Counted from the first letter of the stretch, positions 14,255-51,232 are shown. The stretch: DNA of 64,000 nucleotides from an uncultured bacterium (GCA_964387845.1 CAYLXA010000004.1:32001-96000); one strand, 5' to 3'. The notes: generated from the letters alone by a model not told the origin. Translations and numbers: made by a program.

Positions 14255-14348
14255 ATTCAAAATTCAGATATCAAATCTCAAAACAAATTCGAATTTCCAA
14301 TATTTCAATATTTAAATTATTTTGAAATTTGAGATTTGAATTTAATAA
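14255..14348. repeat. AT-rich inverted heptad-repeat element (aaattca-type left arm, ttgaatt-type right arm), copy 1 of 4.
   Basis: Left arm aattcaaaattcagatatcaaatctcaaaa, right arm ttttgaaatttgagatttgaattt. It lies between the def stop and the bcp start. Confidence 0.6.
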
Positions 14349-14360
14349 TTCGGAGATCAC

Positions 14361-14825
14361 GTGAAGCTCAAAGAAGGTTCGAAAGCGCCCGCATTTACGG
14401 CTCAAGCCAGCAACGGCAAAGAAGTATCACTCAAGGATTTTGCAGGCAAGAAGAAAGTGATCCTTTACTTTTATCCCAAAGACGATACGCCGGGCTGTAC
14501 GGTGGAAGCCTGTGAATTCCGCGACTCGGTGAAGAAAATTGAATCCGAAGATGCGATTGTTCTTGGCGTCAGCCCGGATGGTATCAGTTCGCACAACAAA
14601 TTTATCGACAAATTCAAACTTCCGTTTTTGCTCTTAAGCGACGAAGATAAAAAAATCTGCAAAGCATACGGGGTCTGGGTCAAAAAGAGTATGTACGGCC
14701 GTGAATATATGGGCGTGGCGCGCTCGACTTTTATTATTGATGAAGACGGCAAGATCAGTAAGATCTTCGAGAAAGTAAAGCCGAATGGGCATGCTCAAGA
14801 AGTTTTAGAAGTTTTAAAGTCATGA
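14361..14825 (+). CDS. bcp: Peroxiredoxin Bcp (thiol peroxidase)
   Basis: GTG start. [15 protein letters not shown] motif with the peroxidatic Cys. Confidence 0.85.
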
Positions 14826-15238
14826 AAGCGCATACGGAATATTTGACGTTTAATACCAAAAATAAGCGCGAATACATCAATATTACGCGCGAAGTGGAAG
14901 CTGCGGTCCGCAAATCCGGCGTCAAAGAGGGGATGGTGCTCGTCAATCCCATGCACATTACGGCGAGTGTCTATATTAATGATGACGAGCGCGGCCTCAT
15001 TCAGGATTTCGATGATTTCCTCGAGAAAATCGCACCCTACAATTTAAAAGGCTACCGTCATCATCAAACCGGTGAAGACAACGGCGATTCACACTTGAAG
15101 CGCCAGCTTTTCGGCCGGGAAGTCGTGGTGGCCATCACGAACGGCAAACTCGATTTTGGTACCTGGGAACAAATTTTCTACGCTGAATTCGACGGCCGGC
15201 GTTCCAAGCGTGTTCTCATCAAGGTGATCGGCGAATGA
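14822..15238 (+). CDS. yjbQ: YjbQ/UPF0047 family protein (secondary thiamine-phosphate synthase-like)
   Basis: Typical YjbQ length and conserved blocks ([24 protein letters not shown]). Four-base overlap with bcp. Confidence 0.7.
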
Positions 15239-15271
15239 GCATGGCTCAGTCATTGCGAGATGCAAAAGTTC

Positions 15272-15307
15272 CCCTCTCCCTTTTTAAGGGAGAGGGTAGG
15301 GTGAGGG
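15272..15307. repeat. REP-like GC palindrome (ccctctccc-tttta-agggagaggg-ta-gggtgaggg), upstream flank of the DUF559 gene.
   Basis: Read directly. Same family as the elements at 15643, 16204, 28035 and 29456. Confidence 0.75.
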
Positions 15308-15311
15308 TTTT

Positions 15312-15686
15312 GTGAATCAAATTTTAAAAACGTTATCCAGAAACTTAAGAAAAAATCAGACTGATTCCGAAAGAAAGCTTTGGTATTTCCTAAGAAACCG
15401 GCAATTTTTAGATCTAAAATTCCGCAGGCAATACAAGATCGGAAAATATATTGTTGATTTTTGTTGTGTTGAAAAAATGCTGGTAATTGAATTAGATGGC
15501 GGACAACATAATGAAAATAAACCGGATAAAATTCGAGAACTGTATTTGAAAGCATGCGGTTATCGCATTCTTCGTTTCTGGGATCATGAATTGTTAAATG
15601 AAACCGATGTTGTTTTAGAAAAAATCCACTCGATTTTGGAATCCCTCACCCTTGATCCCTCTCCCAAAGGGAGAGGGAAGAAATAA
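15312..15686 (+). CDS. DUF559 / Vsr-like endonuclease domain protein
   Basis: RKLWYFLRNRQ ... FRRQ ... IVDF ... LVIELDGGQH pattern typical of DUF559. GTG start. Flanked by inverted REP-like palindromes. Confidence 0.75.
   Translation: MNQILKTLSRNLRKNQTDSERKLWYFLRNRQFLDLKFRRQYKIGKYIVDFCCVEKMLVIELDGGQHNENKPDKIRELYLKACGYRILRFWDHELLNETDVVLEKIHSILESLTLDPSPKGRGKK
15643..15677. repeat. REP-like GC palindrome (ccctcaccc-ttgat-ccctctccc-aaa-gggagaggg), downstream flank inside the 3' end of the DUF559 ORF. It is inverted relative to the upstream copy.
   Basis: Read directly. Confidence 0.75.
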
Positions 15687-49087: not shown

Positions 49088-49253
49088 GCTTTGAAGAAGC
49101 CCTCCGCTCAATGGATTCACCGTGAGAAATCTATTCACTCCGGCATTGGAACACCTTCCGCTCAAAACGTCGCAGTCATCGGCTTTCCAATGCCTCCGCA
49201 CATGATTTCTCTCTCGCGAATCCAATTCGCCTCGGCGCTTCTTCAAGGCTTTT
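49086..49253. mobile_element. MITE-like element, copy 2 (about 168 bp). Same terminal inverted repeats as copy 1, with an internal deletion.
   Basis: aagctttgaagaagc ... gcttcttcaaggcttt. Immediately after the cysA stop. Confidence 0.7.
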
Positions 49254-49278
49254 GGAAATACGGGAAGAACCTCCTATT

Positions 49279-49420
49279 GCGAGAGCGGCGTCGAGAGAAC
49301 GAGCTTCAGGTCGAAGCGAGTGAACGAGCCGCAGTGAGCACGGCAATTTTTGCTTAGCCGGTTGGGCTAAAAATTGTCGGGCGGAACGTAGCGACGCAAT
49401 GGGAGGTTCTGACCGGTGAT
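49279..49420 (+). ncRNA. Copy C of the three-copy structured intergenic module.
   Basis: gagagcggcgtcgagagaacgag ... gagtgaacgagccgcagtgagcacg ... hairpin caatttttgcttagcc..gggctaaaaattg ... cgtagcgacgcaa. Confidence 0.4.
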
Positions 49421-49487
49421 TTTCTGACAATAATTAGCACAGGTTACAATGACGGAAGGCGCTTGACAGGTTTGTTATACTGACGGC

Positions 49488-49766
49488 ATGAAACTAAGTA
49501 CCAAGAAAATAGCGATGGTTTTGATTGCCTGCCTGGTTTTGGCCGGTTTTGGGCTTTCATTTTTCCACCACCATGAAGACGGCGGCGAGCATCACGATTG
49601 CGTTGTTTGCTATTTTACACAAGCCGTCCGAGCCCTTTCTGTTTTGACGGCTGTTTTCCTGATCGGGCTTGTGTTTGCTTATTTTCTTTCTTTTGAGAAA
49701 CAGTCTTTCACACAAACTCTTCTACCATCATCACTTCTTGCACGCGCTCCTCCGGTTCTCTCCTAA
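49488..49766 (+). CDS. Small His/Cys-rich membrane protein (FHHHEDGGEHHDCVVC), possibly metal-binding.
   Basis: One TM helix, a His-rich motif, a second TM helix. Upstream of the metal ABC genes. Confidence 0.4.
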   Translation: MKLSTKKIAMVLIACLVLAGFGLSFFHHHEDGGEHHDCVVCYFTQAVRALSVLTAVFLIGLVFAYFLSFEKQSFTQTLLPSSLLARAPPVLS

Positions 49767-49809
49767 TTAAAATTTCTCACTAAAATTTTTAATTCAGGAG
49801 GATTTTGTC

Positions 49810-51138
49810 ATGCGGAAACTATCCGCTCTTATTATGGTTGTATTCTGTTTTTTCTGCTTTGCAAAATGTAAAGAAGCCCGTGCAAGCGAAGCGCTTCTCA
49901 CAGCGCTTCAGGAACAGGTGACGGGCTTGAGCGATTTGGTCAAGTCGCTTCAAACTACCGTTCAAAGTCAAAGTAAGCTCATCGAATCTCAAGGAGCCAA
50001 AATTGTTTATTTGGAGGGATCTCTTGAGAAAGGTGCTGCGCTTCCGAAACCTGCTTCTGAACCTGCCGGAGCGCCCAAAATGAGCGGCCTGTCGCAGGGG
50101 CTGAATCCTGAGATCGGCCTTGTGGCATCGATTCAGGCCAATTCGACCGAAAGCACCGAAGACGGCGAAGGAAACGATACCATTGCGCTCAAAGAGGCCG
50201 AGCTGTCAATTTCGCAGTACGTTGACCCCTTTTCCCGTTTGGACGGCATTATTGCGTTTAACGACAATTTAGAAGAGCAAAATGTCGATGTGGAAGAGCT
50301 TTATTACACGCACTGGGGGATTCCGCTCGGGTTTCGCGGGCAAATCGGAAAATTCCGGTCCAAAATCGGAAAGACCAATTTGCTGCATTCTCACCAACTC
50401 GATACCGTGGATTATCCGCTCGTGATCCGTGATTTCTTCGGTGAACATGGTTTGTCATCATCTGGCGCGCGGCTTCAGAACATGATTCCGAATCCGTTCG
50501 ACATTCCGATCGAAGTGACAGGCGAAATTCTGCGCGGCAATAACGGCACAAGCTTCTCAGGTGTTTCACGCCGGCCGATTTTTAATTCTCATGTCAGTAC
50601 GTTCTTCCAAACCTCCGAGAATACGAACCTCGAAGTTGGCGGAACGGCGATCTTCGGCGATGAAAATCCCGCCGTTATCGAGTATGACGGAGAATCGGAT
50701 GTGCTTTTGGATCCCGAGATTCCGGAAGCCGGGAGCGATAAGTACGGTGTCCGGGTATTCGGCGCCGATGCGACTTTTAAATGGGATTTGCCCGAAGGAA
50801 GGTCTATTAAGTGGCAGAATGAAATTTATTTTCAAAACCGGGGTTCGAATACGCGCCATGCAAATTTGTTTCCGTGGGGATTTTATTCTTTAATCGATCA
50901 CCGGCTGTCAAAGCGTTTTAGTGTTGGATTGCGGGTTGATTATGTAGAGCCGCTTGATTTTGTCGATCATGACACTGTTGGCGTCTCGCCCTACATTACA
51001 TTTTGGCAAAGTGAATTTGCGAATTTTCGGCTTCAATATTCGTACACCAAACCAGCAGACGGAGCTTTGGAGCCTAATAACGAAGTGTTTTTAAAGGCAA
51101 ACGTCTTGATTGGCGCACATCGGCATCCGGTGCAGTAA
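49810..51138 (+). CDS. Putative outer-membrane beta-barrel / porin-like protein with an N-terminal coiled-coil.
   Basis: Signal peptide. Coiled-coil LTALQEQVTGLSDLVKSLQ. Alternating beta-strand pattern. Same architecture as the 57619-59151 porin. Confidence 0.45.
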   Translation: MRKLSALIMVVFCFFCFAKCKEARASEALLTALQEQVTGLSDLVKSLQTTVQSQSKLIESQGAKIVYLEGSLEKGAALPKPASEPAGAPKMSGLSQGLNPEIGLVASIQANSTESTEDGEGNDTIALKEAELSISQYVDPFSRLDGIIAFNDNLEEQNVDVEELYYTHWGIPLGFRGQIGKFRSKIGKTNLLHSHQLDTVDYPLVIRDFFGEHGLSSSGARLQNMIPNPFDIPIEVTGEILRGNNGTSFSGVSRRPIFNSHVSTFFQTSENTNLEVGGTAIFGDENPAVIEYDGESDVLLDPEIPEAGSDKYGVRVFGADATFKWDLPEGRSIKWQNEIYFQNRGSNTRHANLFPWGFYSLIDHRLSKRFSVGLRVDYVEPLDFVDHDTVGVSPYITFWQSEFANFRLQYSYTKPADGALEPNNEVFLKANVLIGAHRHPVQ

Positions 51139-51232
51139 TATCAAATTTCAAATATCAAATATCAAAATTCTGAATTTGAGATTGAGTATTGGAATTTGTT
51201 TTATATTTTGATATTTGGATTTTGATATTAAA
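51139..51232. repeat. AT-rich inverted heptad-repeat element, copy 4 of 4.
   Basis: atatcaaatttcaaatatcaaatatcaaaattc ... ttttatattttgatatttggattttgatatt. Confidence 0.6.

Follow-up and report, generated by a model that had tools for sequence, protein, structure and literature searches.

Four AT-rich palindromes, here E1 to E4, lie in the window, a 64-kb stretch of DNA whose host is probably a Candidatus Omnitrophota MAG. We read them, with slightly better than even confidence, as gene-less ("solo") copies of a widespread, IVS-like tandem-repeat-stem hairpin, that is, as selfish or near-neutral inserts that are probable RNase III or mRNA-end sites. The same architecture forms both flanks of PF05635 gene cassettes. 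The elements lie scattered, almost always in intergenic DNA, their motif and the occupancy of a given site differ between relatives, and gene-bearing and gene-less forms of the same core occur side by side.

Anatomy and Genomic Setting of the Elements

All four palindromes, each of about 95–105 nt, were confirmed at the positions given in the initial annotation (Table 1). Their arms consist of four to five heptads, TCAAAnn on one arm and nnTTTGA on the other, and enclose loops of 30–45 nt without an ORF. In E1, the left arm (~14252–14285) reads TAAATTC, AAAATTC, AGATATC, AAATCTC, AAAAC, and the right arm occupies ~14318–14344, followed by a second TAA at 14346–14348. The left arm and loop of E3 are 73% identical to those of E1 over 78 nt, and an inner hairpin containing G-C pairs sits in the loop of E2.

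The elements had been described as each standing right after a stop codon. This holds for E1, E3, and E4, in which the first triplet of the palindrome is the TAA stop of the upstream gene (def, 14252–14254; tatA, 40341–40343; the porin-like gene, 51136–51138), but not for E2, which starts 75 nt past the TAG (26287–26289) of the lipoprotein ORF. All four bear out the companion statement that they end just before the next gene or tRNA: the gap is 12 nt to the GTG of the peroxiredoxin gene at 14361 for E1, 28 nt to the ATG of the response-regulator gene at 26495 for E2, 5 nt to the minus-strand tRNA-Arg (40452–40527) for E3, and 13 nt to the ATG of znuA at 51246, with its ribosome-binding site at 51237–51242, for E4.

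The list of local inverted repeats in the window is dominated by heptad palindromes whose cores differ from that of E1–E4. The AAGTGnT palindrome begins 3 nt past the stop codon of a cation-efflux (CDF) gene, and the gene downstream of it is a convergent ExbD homologue, as judged by synteny with the related contigs L013 and L016. Two further GC-rich stretches lie in frame inside ORFs; the one in the 704-aa protein encodes loop residues that are extra to those in homologues, and the predicted fold of the one in the 2167-aa ORF is not better than that of shuffled sequence.

Table 1. Heptad elements of the window, with predicted folds.
Feature	Position	Strand	Description and context	dG	z
E1	14252–14348	.	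AT-rich heptad palindrome between def and peroxiredoxin (AhpC/TSA-family) gene	-17.2	-2.97
E2	26365–26466	.	Same family as E1; between lipoprotein ORF and response-regulator gene	-30.3	-4.84
E3	40341–40446	.	Same family as E1; between tatA and convergent tRNA-Arg	-24.6	-4.75
E4	51136–51232	.	Same family as E1; between porin-like gene and znuA	-27.6	-5.36
PF05635 cassette	39181–39596	+	Heptad palindrome with gene in loop, E1–E4-like architecture; 118-aa ORF, PF05635 E 4e-39
GC-rich heptad palindrome	39974–40108	.	GCnnCAA / TTGnnGC type; intergenic, upstream of tatA	-71.4	-5.66
Gene-less heptad palindrome	41468–41541	.	AAGTGnT x4 / CTTACCA x4	-32.4	-8.84
GC-rich heptad array	16399–16480	+	In frame inside 704-aa membrane/TPR protein ORF		-3.1
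GC-rich heptad stretch	23343–23430	+	In frame inside 2167-aa RHS/Tc-toxin-like ORF; heptad periodicity		+1.1

Family Statistics, Periodicity, and Folding

The two-arm pattern AAATNTCAAAA N20-50 TTTTGANNTTTGRNNTTTGA matches the window exactly four times, at E1–E4, and 100 dinucleotide-preserving shuffles yielded 0 matches. A right-arm 20-mer searched with at most two mismatches gave 15 matches against 0.49 expected, 14 of them inside E1–E4. All four elements fold as long hairpins, with predicted dG of -17.2 to -30.3 kcal/mol and z of -3.0 to -5.4, and the two arms are 81–92% complementary over 24–27 nt. The proposal of a dispersed family of hairpin-forming heptad palindromes is thereby upheld, with four copies where none is expected.

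A lag of 7 was the best or joint-best in six of the eight arms, with shuffle p values of 0.0005–0.018 for these six. The other two, the right arms of E3 and E4, contain slips of 6 or 8 nt and gave p values of 0.12 and 0.16. Across the whole window, 44 windows of 35 nt reach at least 75% self-match at period 7, compared with none at periods 3–6 and 8–11 and five at period 12. The heptad periodicity thus exceeds that of shuffled sequence, as had been suggested, and period 7 is uniquely enriched window-wide.

The stems are 72–84% A+T, and their variable heptad positions are uncompensated across the stem, giving a mismatch about every 7 nt. In the Rfam search of the window, only two tRNAs reached the gathering score, and E1–E4 had no match even at an E-value of ≤1. 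As a separate observation, the 5-nt core is kept in every heptad, which is more than base pairing alone requires and could indicate a protein-binding role.

Spread of the Palindrome and Gene-Bearing Cassettes

The exact TCAAAnn palindrome pattern matched at least 113 stretches from about 12 phylum-level groups; because the pattern demanded both arms, these matches are palindromic by construction, and a few, in Nostoc, Nodularia, and L115, are direct arrays whose left half matched by chance. Among the 80 matches listed, 32 are from CPR/Patescibacteria, 12 from Bacteroidota, 9 from Omnitrophota, 5 from Planctomycetota, and smaller numbers from other groups. Most hairpins (112 of 120) lie outside ORFs of at least 80 aa, and no transposase adjoins any copy examined. 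A family that shares ~150 nt of conserved non-repeat core occurs in Omnitrophota genomes; in an alignment of 13 copies, similarity fades gradually into further heptads and no sharp ends are seen.

PF05635, the uncharacterised "23S rRNA IVS protein" family, comprises four-helix-bundle proteins related to Avd. By tblastn, the window holds a single gene of this family (PF05635/23S_rRNA_IVP; tblastn match 39220–39573, ORF 39220–39576), flanked by four TAGCGnn units on the left (39181–39211) and four nnCGCTA units on the right (39566–39596); no PF05635 gene with TCAAA-type flanks is present in the window. A histidine-kinase gene and a response-regulator gene enclose this cassette, and the stop codon of the former (39195–39197) is the third TAG of the TAGCGnn array. 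Three PF05635 homologues from other lineages are all placed between a pair of operon genes, and each has TAGCGnn or TAGGGnn arrays at both of its flanks.

Among the 67 metagenomic PF05635 loci with both flanks available, the flanks are at least 75% complementary in 52, compared with 1 of 186 controls. When period 7 or 8 was strictly required of both flanks, 36 of the 67 loci and none of the 186 controls passed, and among those that passed, the period was always equal on both flanks. IMG/VR contigs show the same flank-repeat pattern around PF05635 genes. An arm typically has four to five units, and its repeat core varies together with the PF05635 subfamily; TAGCG stays with one subfamily across unrelated gene neighbourhoods and lineages. 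Gene-less hairpins adjoin cassettes of the same core in L005 (4585–4651) and L161 (1115–1184), and the cassettes of L217 and L218 have an nAGTGnn core matching that of a gene-less hairpin in the window. For E1–E4, a link to the gene-bearing form is suggested by one distant example, the L068 cassette, whose flanks TCAAAAG/CTTTTGA have the same core.

Turnover at Orthologous Sites

In the strain-variant contigs L002 and L003, the E2 site is occupied by a TTCGAAC-type palindrome with unchanged flanks. The window and L002 diverge directly after gacgaTAA, and their arms are in register when aligned and differ mainly at fixed positions of the heptad. The site between the CDF gene and ExbD carries the AAGTGnT palindrome in the window, a TTTAATG-type palindrome in L013, and only an 11-nt gap in L016. 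E3 is absent after tatA in L013, which has at this position a GC-rich hairpin followed by a T-run, resembling a canonical terminator. The MurJ identity of the relatives compared is only 69–78%, so absence may mean loss rather than that an element was never inserted. No clean filled-versus-empty allele pair defining the element ends was found, and no mobilising enzyme was identified for the elements.

Proposed Mechanism and Alternative Explanations

We infer that the elements are selfish or near-neutral insertions that spread or turn over and would survive where they are harmless, in the spacer that separates a stop codon from the ribosome-binding site of the next gene. Since 7 = 1 mod 3, a run of three heptads with a stop triplet in each would close all three reading frames, so that an element can lie directly against a gene or itself provide the gene's stop codon. 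A transcribed element would form an imperfect double-stranded RNA stem of 24–35 bp. By analogy with the 23S IVS, which is excised by RNase III, this stem would most likely punctuate the transcript, as a site that is cut by RNase III or that determines mRNA ends; for E1–E4, RNase III processing is purely an analogy with the Coxiella IVS.

The initial annotation had proposed bidirectional terminators with promoter-like AT tracts, the AT-rich right arm acting as the promoter of the next gene. This view would account for the position of E1–E4 at gene ends, for the functionally unrelated gene pairs around E1, E2, and E4, for the U-rich 3' arm, for the inner G-C-containing hairpin of E2 followed by its U-rich arm, and for the location of E3 between convergent tatA and tRNA-Arg, where L013 has its canonical-looking terminator. 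However, a scan for intrinsic terminators (GC-stemmed and T-tailed) flagged none of the four, because their stems are almost without G-C pairs and lack a separate T-tail, and a classical intrinsic terminator is unlikely. The same architecture also occurs in frame inside ORFs and around a gene within operons, and at the same site in relatives the elements are swapped or missing. TTGAnA hexamers in the right arms create sigma-70-like matches that face the downstream gene (10/12 in E1, 9/12 with a TG extension in E2, and 9/12 in E4), but in E1 and E4 the -10 hexamer overlaps the start codon or lies ≤11 nt from it, so a transcript from there would lose its ribosome-binding site. Promoter geometry is plausible only in E2, and the total of promoter-like matches in the E1–E4 regions is not clearly above shuffled expectation. 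As stated, the proposal is not supported, and we assign it a low probability. It is quite improbable that the arrays are instead double-stranded DNA platforms of multiple sites for a nucleoid-associated or regulatory protein, the inversion merely pairing sites without an RNA hairpin. The core present in every unit, the usual four to five units per arm, the uncompensated variable positions, and the co-variation of core and PF05635 subfamily would suit such a platform. Candidate binders would be IHF/HU, as proposed for Geobacter, or the pentameric PF05635 protein: the solved homologues 2gsc (from Xanthomonas campestris) and 2rld were both deposited with five chains, and S23p, the PF05635 protein encoded by 23S IVS, has been reported as a homopentamer (PMC4990558). 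Any such binding is, however, putative; the maintained arm complementarity (52/67 versus 1/186) is not required of paired binding sites, and a 7-bp spacing puts successive sites on different faces of B-DNA.

Two further explanations concern the origin of the elements. If they were classical MITEs, the arms would be terminal inverted repeats for a DDE transposase encoded elsewhere, with TAA as the duplicated target. A TAA stands at both ends of E1, E3, and E4, the left one being the stop codon and the right one lying at 14346–14348, 40444–40446, and 51229–51231, respectively; the divergence of E2 and L002 just after a TAA fits as well, and the conserved core of the Omnitrophota family suggests copying. 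Yet TAA is common in sequence of 80% AT, the right-hand TAA is missing in E2, and the 13-copy alignment lacks sharp termini. No transposase is linked to the elements, either within the 64 kb of the source genome covered or next to any copy examined. The only Y1 transposase seen belongs to L002 and has around it REP-like inverted repeats of its own, unrelated to the heptad elements. We consider this origin very unlikely. An explanation without mobility, to which we also give little credence, is in-place polymerase slippage on a 7-nt unit with template switching, similar motifs reflecting mutational or compositional convergence. Heptanucleotide repeats have been reported to outnumber other long simple repeats in most bacterial genomes, with polymerase slippage proposed as the explanation (Mrazek 2007, as cited in PMC4679880 and PMC4692102). 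Many different heptad cores coexist in the window, and the in-register arms at the E2 site look like concerted in-place change. Slippage does not readily explain one core at four loci where none is expected, the loop sequence that E1 and E3 have in common, the long non-repeat core of the Omnitrophota copies, or a TAGCG core that accompanies one PF05635 subfamily through unrelated neighbourhoods and lineages.

Comparison with Known Repeat Systems

The elements had been put forward as a possible previously unnamed class. The class, though little studied, is not wholly new, since similar heptad hairpins have been described in Nostoc, Geobacter, and Coxiella; in the literature searched, no description was found of the TCAAAnn family, its cross-phylum spread, or a general PF05635 link. 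Like these heptanucleotide hairpins, E1–E4 have tandem 7-nt arms, a second array reverse-complementary to the first, and motif replacement at one locus.

In Nostocales, heptanucleotide repeats of Class I (TDNGATT) and Class II (NNTGAGT) make up the P6b stem of the intron in tRNA-Leu(UAA); in Nostoc the stem differs in length between strains, and replacement of one motif class by another at this locus has occurred repeatedly (PMC4476775). The stems of E1–E4 likewise pair degenerate 7-nt units of one arm with their complements on the other, and in the window, too, one motif stands where a relative has another (the E2 site versus L002 and the CDF site versus L013). P6b, however, lies inside a group I intron of cyanobacteria and has other motifs, whereas E1–E4 are intergenic, belong to a probable Omnitrophota genome, and have a TCAAA core. 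Nostocales also carry STRR heptamer repeats, and cyanobacterial matches in our scan were mostly direct arrays rather than palindromes.

Geobacter metallireducens has "class 3 global regulator sites" of five tandem MTYCTGA units paired on opposite strands, and 49 copies of four GGACCGG units within and between genes (PMC2700814). Shared with our elements are the four to five tandem heptads, the inverted pairs at variable distance, and the multi-copy occurrence in both intergenic and intragenic positions; the CTGA core also flanks the PF05635 gene of L091 (CTGA/TCAGA). The Geobacter arrays have other cores, were read without tests as IHF/HU-type sites, and were not linked to PF05635.

Direct TAACTGA heptamers form intergenic arrays of 2–6 units across distant phyla, including Beggiatoaceae, cyanobacteria, and Bacteroidetes, and overlap gene ends because they contain stop codons in all three frames (PMC4679880). 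They are almost always direct, with one inverted case among 170 sets, and are mostly found immediately before start codons. The GGGAATC-type heptads of Xanthomonas and the GGGGAYT heptads of Nostoc are degenerate with conserved positions, intergenic, and most often present in four units, and some form inverted pairs with stem-loop potential (PMC4692102); unlike E1–E4, they are G-rich and were studied as G-quadruplexes.

REP, BIME, and REPIN elements are likewise short, abundant intergenic palindromes after stop codons; genomes tolerate these selfish sequences, some of which affect mRNA 3' ends. REP elements are 20–40 bp long and G-C-rich, have a conserved GTAG or CGTC head and no tandem-heptad substructure, and are mobilised by RAYT Y1 transposases (PMC3733652, PMC2817692). 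An assignment of E1–E4 to REP/BIME was rejected: they are AT-rich without a GTAG or CGTC head, and the window contains no RAYT gene.

In Coxiella, the 23S IVS has 3–4 tandem heptamers (GACAGAT) whose copy number is strain-variable, and RNase III cuts at the first repeat (PMC4990558). The 23S IVS of Coxiella, Leptospira, and others resides in helix 45 of 23S rRNA, whereas the PF05635 cassettes found here lie between protein-coding genes in operons; none of the elements is inserted in a 23S rRNA helix, their positions all being inside protein-coding genes or between them, and the window has no rRNA match in Rfam. The IVS consists of a long stem of terminal inverted repeats with a PF05635 ORF in the loop. 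The PF05635 cassette of the window has this same anatomy, and E1–E4 have the long stem of terminal inverted repeats and, unlike the 23S IVS, a loop without an ORF.

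Anatomy of the AT-Rich Palindromes

A direct reading of the sequence confirms, at all four sites, the AT-rich elements of inverted heptads described in the initial annotation (E1–E4; coordinates are collected in the table). The left arm comprises four to five TCAAAnn-type units (in E1, for example, TAAATTC AAAATTC AGATATC AAATCTC AAAAC) and is followed by a centre of 30–45 nt and a right arm of complementary nnTTTGA units. The suggestion of a dispersed repeat family is borne out, as the four loci share one core, and the two-arm pattern matched only E1–E4 in the window (six matches over both strands) and nothing in 100 dinucleotide-preserving shuffles. 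A right-arm 20-mer, allowing up to two mismatches, matched the window 15 times against 0.49 expected, with 14 of the 15 matches inside E1–E4. An alignment of the four (68% mean column identity) shows conserved arms and mostly divergent centres; E1 and E3 are 73% identical over 78 nt, centre included. The heptad periodicity also stands against shuffled sequence, lag 7 being best or joint-best in six of the eight arms (shuffle p 0.0005–0.018); in E3 and E4 the right arm is interrupted by 6- and 8-nt slips and does not reach significance by itself. All four elements fold into long imperfect hairpins, with dG of −17.2 to −30.3 kcal/mol and z of −3.0 to −5.4. Placement right after a stop codon holds for E1, E3, and E4, which begin with the TAA of the upstream gene, a triplet whose pairing partner is a TTA at the opposite end, but not for E2, which lies 75 nt past the stop.

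Searches of Rfam at the gathering threshold and at E-value ≤1 returned nothing at E1–E4; its other matches were chance miRNA- or snoRNA-like hits on other palindromes of the window. A CRISPR-like array was rejected on the lack of spacers and the presence of only two inverted arrays, a coding repeat on the TGA that closes each of the three right-arm frames, and an assembly artefact on the identical sequence in the independent contig L001. An independent contig from short reads of the same strain, L004, breaks off within E1 (positions 1-46), 46 nt ahead of the gene for the peroxiredoxin (AhpC/TSA-family), which suggests that heptad repeats break short-read assemblies. An identical-protein look-up with the peroxiredoxin returned a sole contig, which ends inside E1, and look-ups with def, the response regulator at 39599-39970, and the protein P0001 matched no contig.

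Other Repeats in the Window

Heptad structure extends beyond these elements. Across the whole window, 44 stretches of 35 nt show ≥75% self-match at lag 7, against none at lags 3–6 and 8–11 and five at lag 12, and nearly all of the longest local inverted repeats are made of heptads. Where GC-rich heptads lie in-frame in the ORF around 16399-16480, the protein carries about 14–19 additional residues in a variable loop relative to nine homologues. Heptad arrays within ORFs may also be direct rather than inverted. A second family of small palindromes includes one copy in-frame in a TPR/membrane protein ORF, where it encodes ...PNPLPQVGEGIKEVFPRPVGERGRVRG...; most homologues are gapped at that point and a few have other inserts. 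The segments of a composite intergenic repeat are 76–95% identical and contain internal hairpins such as TGAGCACGATGATTTTTGC...GCAAAAATCATCG.

Coordinates of repeats and accompanying features in the window and in compared loci
Feature	Position	Setting or content	Fold z
E1	14252-14348	between def and peroxiredoxin genes	
E2	26365-26466	between lipoprotein ORF and response regulator	
E3	40341-40446	between tatA and tRNA-Arg	
E4	51136-51232	between porin-like gene and znuA	
GC-rich palindrome, GCnnCAA type	39974-40108	upstream of tatA	−5.7
AAGTGnT x4 / CTTACCA x4 palindrome	41468-41541	3 nt past cation-efflux (CDF) gene	−8.8
TAGCGnn x4 paired with nnCGCTA x4	39181-39211 and 39566-39596	around 118-aa PF05635 ORF	
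GC-rich heptad stretches	16399-16480 and 23343-23430	in-frame in two long ORFs	
Direct array, ATCCGAA type	30827-30878	near end of kinase gene	
Direct array, CCTTAnn type	22715-22757	RHS-like gene	
Second palindrome family, CCCTCACCC...CCCTCTCCC nnnn GGGAGAGGG...	15272-15310, 15643-15679, 16201-16289, 28035-28091, 29456-29498	also in relative L013, about 5170-5205	
Composite repeat x3, ~400 nt	13291-13690, 17801-18215, 49088-49487	intergenic	
Four tandem paralogous histidine-kinase genes, 449–477 aa each	26878-32430	after response-regulator gene downstream of E2; repeated C-terminal blocks	
Giant ORF, 4412 aa	52-13290		
Giant ORF, 2167 aa	18413-24916	L001 counterpart matches SpvB/TcdB/RHS domains	
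Y1 transposase (PF01797), 197 aa	L002 200-900	in place of genes upstream of E2 site	
Large serine recombinase gene	L013 9156-10943	directly after murJ, where window has tRNA-His	
Large serine recombinase gene	L016 19841-21478	~8 kb downstream, after 2642-aa ORF	
Gene-less hairpin	L005 4585-4651	TAGGGnn x4, 11-nt loop, nnCCCTA x4	−4.7
Gene-less hairpin	L161 1115-1184	TAGCGnn type	−5.2

Site Turnover Between Relatives

Relatives do not conserve the sites of E1–E4. The organism was placed by the MurJ of the window, whose best named homologues, at 67%, 55%, and 54% identity, come from Candidatus Omnitrophica MAGs; MurJ as a single query against GTDB species representatives found no close relative. 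At the E2 site, L001 is identical to the window, and the strain variants L002 and L003 share both flanks and an identical response regulator but carry a different palindrome, TTCGAAC ATAGAAC CTCGAAC TTCGAAC ... GAAGTCC GAAGTCC ... GTTCGATGTTCGAA (fold z −3.7), whose arms are in register with those of E2, the differences being concentrated at fixed heptad positions. In the relatives L013 and L016, whose MurJ proteins are 78% and 69% identical to that of the window, the region after tatA holds a GC-rich hairpin with a T-run and no E3 in the former, and no heptad palindrome by eye in the latter. The CDF-ExbD spacer, which bears the AAGTGnT palindrome in the window, has a TTTAATG x4 / CATTAAA x4 palindrome in L013 and an 11-nt gap only in L016. 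The transposase of L002 has its own inverted repeats (GGCGTTACTGRCAGT) and is RAYT/REP-like, unrelated to the heptad elements; the serine recombinase region in L013 and L016 may be an integrated element.

Spread of the AT-Rich Motif Across Bacteria

In a scan of one genome per species, the two-arm TCAAAnn pattern matched at least 113 stretches, where base composition alone would give an estimated total of about one match or fewer even if all genomes were 70% A+T. Among the 80 matches listed, 32 are from CPR/Patescibacteria, 12 from Bacteroidota (Ignavibacteria included), nine from Omnitrophota, five from Planctomycetota, four each from Gammaproteobacteria, Cyanobacteria, and Desulfobacterota-type genomes, two each from Dehalococcoidia, Acidobacteriota, and Bdellovibrionales, one each from Verrucomicrobiota and Elusimicrobia, and two are unclassified. 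Most matches inspected are genuine inverted nnTCAAA / TTTGAnn heptad arrays; in the cyanobacterial ones and a few others, the array is direct and the left half of the pattern matched by chance. A generic detector of paired period-7 arrays (78% identity over 21 nt) missed E1–E4 and was left out of the counts. E1–E4 are dispersed and intergenic, and of 120 hairpins from the genome scan 112 fall outside ORFs of at least 80 aa; in 37 of 120 the distance to a stop codon is ≤10 nt, a noisy figure since the RNAfold-derived stems over-extend into the flanks. The motif also has five matches in IMG/VR contigs. An Omnitrophota sub-family, in UBA6233 especially, has a conserved core of about 150 nt whose similarity fades outward into further heptads, and a target-site duplication sought in this phylum's 13-copy family met ends that are not sharp. 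An inner stem motif, CTACAAC/CCACAGC ... GTTGTAG/GCTGTGG right before TTTTGA, is common to many of the AT-heptad hairpins in genomes of Bdellovibrionales, Gammaproteobacteria, and CPR (L030, L058, L085, L091, L104, L119, L123, L124) and hints at a conserved sub-family crossing phyla.

PF05635 Genes within Tandem-Repeat Hairpins

The ORF between the TAGCGnn and nnCGCTA arrays belongs to PF05635 (E 4e-39), the family of the 23S rRNA intervening-sequence (IVS) proteins, and among solved structures it comes nearest to X. campestris XCC0516 (2gsc, E 2e-22), which was deposited with five chains. This cassette is wedged, with 22-nt spacers, between genes for a histidine kinase and a response regulator, and the third TAG of its left array (39195-39197) is the stop codon of the kinase ORF. 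Three homologues from other lineages have inverted TAGCGnn or TAGGGnn x4 on either side and lie between two co-directional operon genes, namely yajC and secDF in an Omnitrophica MAG, T2SS-E and T2SS-F in a groundwater contig, and radical-SAM and DUF2344 genes in a Pseudomonadota MAG.

PF05635 genes sit, as a rule, within tandem-repeat hairpins. A metagenome scan confirmed 594 relatives, using an alignment of a closer set (A4) after a mixed set (A3) proved too divergent; among the best 80 of these, 67 loci had both flanks. Flank-to-flank complementarity of ≥75% over the best 24 nt was found at 52 of the 67 against one of 186 control pairs taken from those contigs, and a strict tandem-period test on both sides was passed by 36 of the 67 against none of the 186. 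The period is always equal on the two sides, being 7 at 21 loci and 8 at 15. The repeat core tracks the protein subfamily: among these best 80 relatives, TAGCGnn accompanies proteins at least about 64% identical to that of the window, TAGGGnn, TAGGCAC, and others accompany those of intermediate identity, and the 8-nt unit AGGRTTCA / CCTTGAAY accompanies most of those at 55–60% identity. Inverted arrays of this 8-nt unit flank a subfamily at 50–62% identity to the window protein (L166-L169, L171, L172, L175, L177, L178, L183, L184, L187-L190, L192, L198, L201-L204, L208). Because of this last subfamily, the period is not fixed at 7 across the family. Other cores accompany three further PF05635 genes that were encountered incidentally, each scoring above the Pfam gathering cutoff: nnTCAGA / TCTGAnn (L091), nnGTAAG (L061), and TCAAAAG-TAAAAAT / CTTTTGA (L068), the last of the core class of E1–E4. 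Relatives on viral contigs share the cassette arrangement, and in one viral pair (L217, L218) the core is nAGTGnn, resembling that of the gene-less hairpin downstream of the CDF gene in the window. Gene-less hairpins bearing the core of a nearby cassette occur in L005, where the hairpin lies one gene upstream of the cassette and its first triplet is the tgt stop codon, and in L161.

Nature of E1–E4 and Rival Explanations

E1–E4 are gene-less members of this tandem-repeat hairpin class. As inserts that are selfish or close to neutral, they would be retained in the spacer that runs from a stop codon to the following ribosome-binding site. Stop triplets are built into the repeats, as each right-arm unit contains TGA, TAGCGnn contains TAG, and E1, E3, and E4 carry an outermost TAA; because 7 = 1 mod 3, three successive stop-bearing heptads would close all three frames, and an element may therefore overlap the end of a gene and supply its stop. 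The kinase gene and tgt in L005 do end inside an array, and MacGregor made a like argument for TAACTGA repeats (PMC4679880). Stop-free cores, such as the GC-rich class, could survive in-frame within genes. Once transcribed, E1–E4 would give imperfect RNA duplexes of 24–35 bp, for which, on the model of the 23S IVS, RNase III processing or definition of the mRNA 3' end would be the most likely molecular consequence.

The initial annotation had instead suggested probable bidirectional terminators with promoter-like AT tracts. This role is improbable: the elements lack G-C stems, the terminator scan called none of them, the promoter-like matches are poorly placed, with the −10 hexamers in E1 and E4 too near the start codon, and in-ORF copies and site turnover fit it poorly. 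An origin of each hairpin by purely local slippage would agree with the general heptanucleotide-repeat excess in bacteria (PMC4679880, PMC4692102) and with the register-preserving differences at the E2 site, but it is likewise doubtful, being at odds with the shared loops, the conserved non-repeat cores, and a core that travels alongside its protein subfamily across lineages. There is still less to expect of classical MITEs with a TAA target duplication; TAA stands at both ends of three of the four elements, but a double TAA is a weak signal in 80% A+T sequence, the 13-copy Omnitrophota alignment has no sharp ends, and no transposase adjoins any of the copies examined. A DNA-level protein-binding role of the arrays, for which the Geobacter authors proposed IHF/HU (PMC2700814), is a candidate of similarly slight probability that might coexist with an RNA hairpin, and the invariant 5-nt core and uncompensated variable positions of the units are suggestive of it. 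The pentameric PF05635 protein is, speculatively, a candidate binder.

Significance and Comparison with Known Systems

A tentative extension, which we hold as possible rather than probable, is that PF05635 proteins (Avd-like, pentameric four-helix bundles) have hairpins of tandem 7-8-nt repeats as their cis-acting sites, the two forming an unrecognised system in many bacterial phyla and viral contigs. The cassettes would be its autonomous form and gene-less hairpins such as E1–E4 a far more numerous form acted on in trans, each subfamily reading its own core with about one subunit per repeat unit. Such a system, if real, would account together for the function of the 'IVS proteins', the heptamers in rRNA IVSs, and some of the heptanucleotide-repeat excess noted for so long. 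The PF05635 proteins are abundant and their structures have been solved; we know of no function for them, nor of an accepted cause for the excess. The window ties the two together, with one hairpin type both without a gene and around a PF05635 gene, and the association extends over 52 of 67 metagenomic loci, many lineages, and viral contigs. The wider pattern is worth following up. The proposal predicts that a PF05635 protein binds its own flanking arrays, that RNase III cuts the stems, and that the repeat core tracks the protein subfamily. Practical consequences include the apparent assembly breaks and the creation or replacement of stop codons; heptad elements can also add in-frame loops to proteins, and annotators should therefore recognise them.

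Reports that heptanucleotides are the most over-represented of the long simple repeats in bacteria go back to 2007 (cited in PMC4679880 and PMC4692102). The idea of a previously unnamed class survives in part. Heptad-built hairpins as a kind are known already, though poorly understood, from Nostoc (PMC4476775), Geobacter (PMC2700814), and Coxiella (PMC4990558), and inverted pairs among GGGAATC-type heptads were noted in Xanthomonas (PMC4692102); the TCAAAnn family, with its spread over about a dozen phylum-level groups, was not found in the literature searched. Neither was the general rule of PF05635 genes in tandem-repeat hairpins with gene-less counterparts, an absence that is not proof of novelty. 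One experimentally studied case of the cassette anatomy is the 23S IVS of Coxiella, which combines an S23p (PF05635) ORF with terminal inverted repeats and a tandem array of GACAGAT heptamers, three or four depending on the strain, at the first of which RNase III cleaves (PMC4990558).
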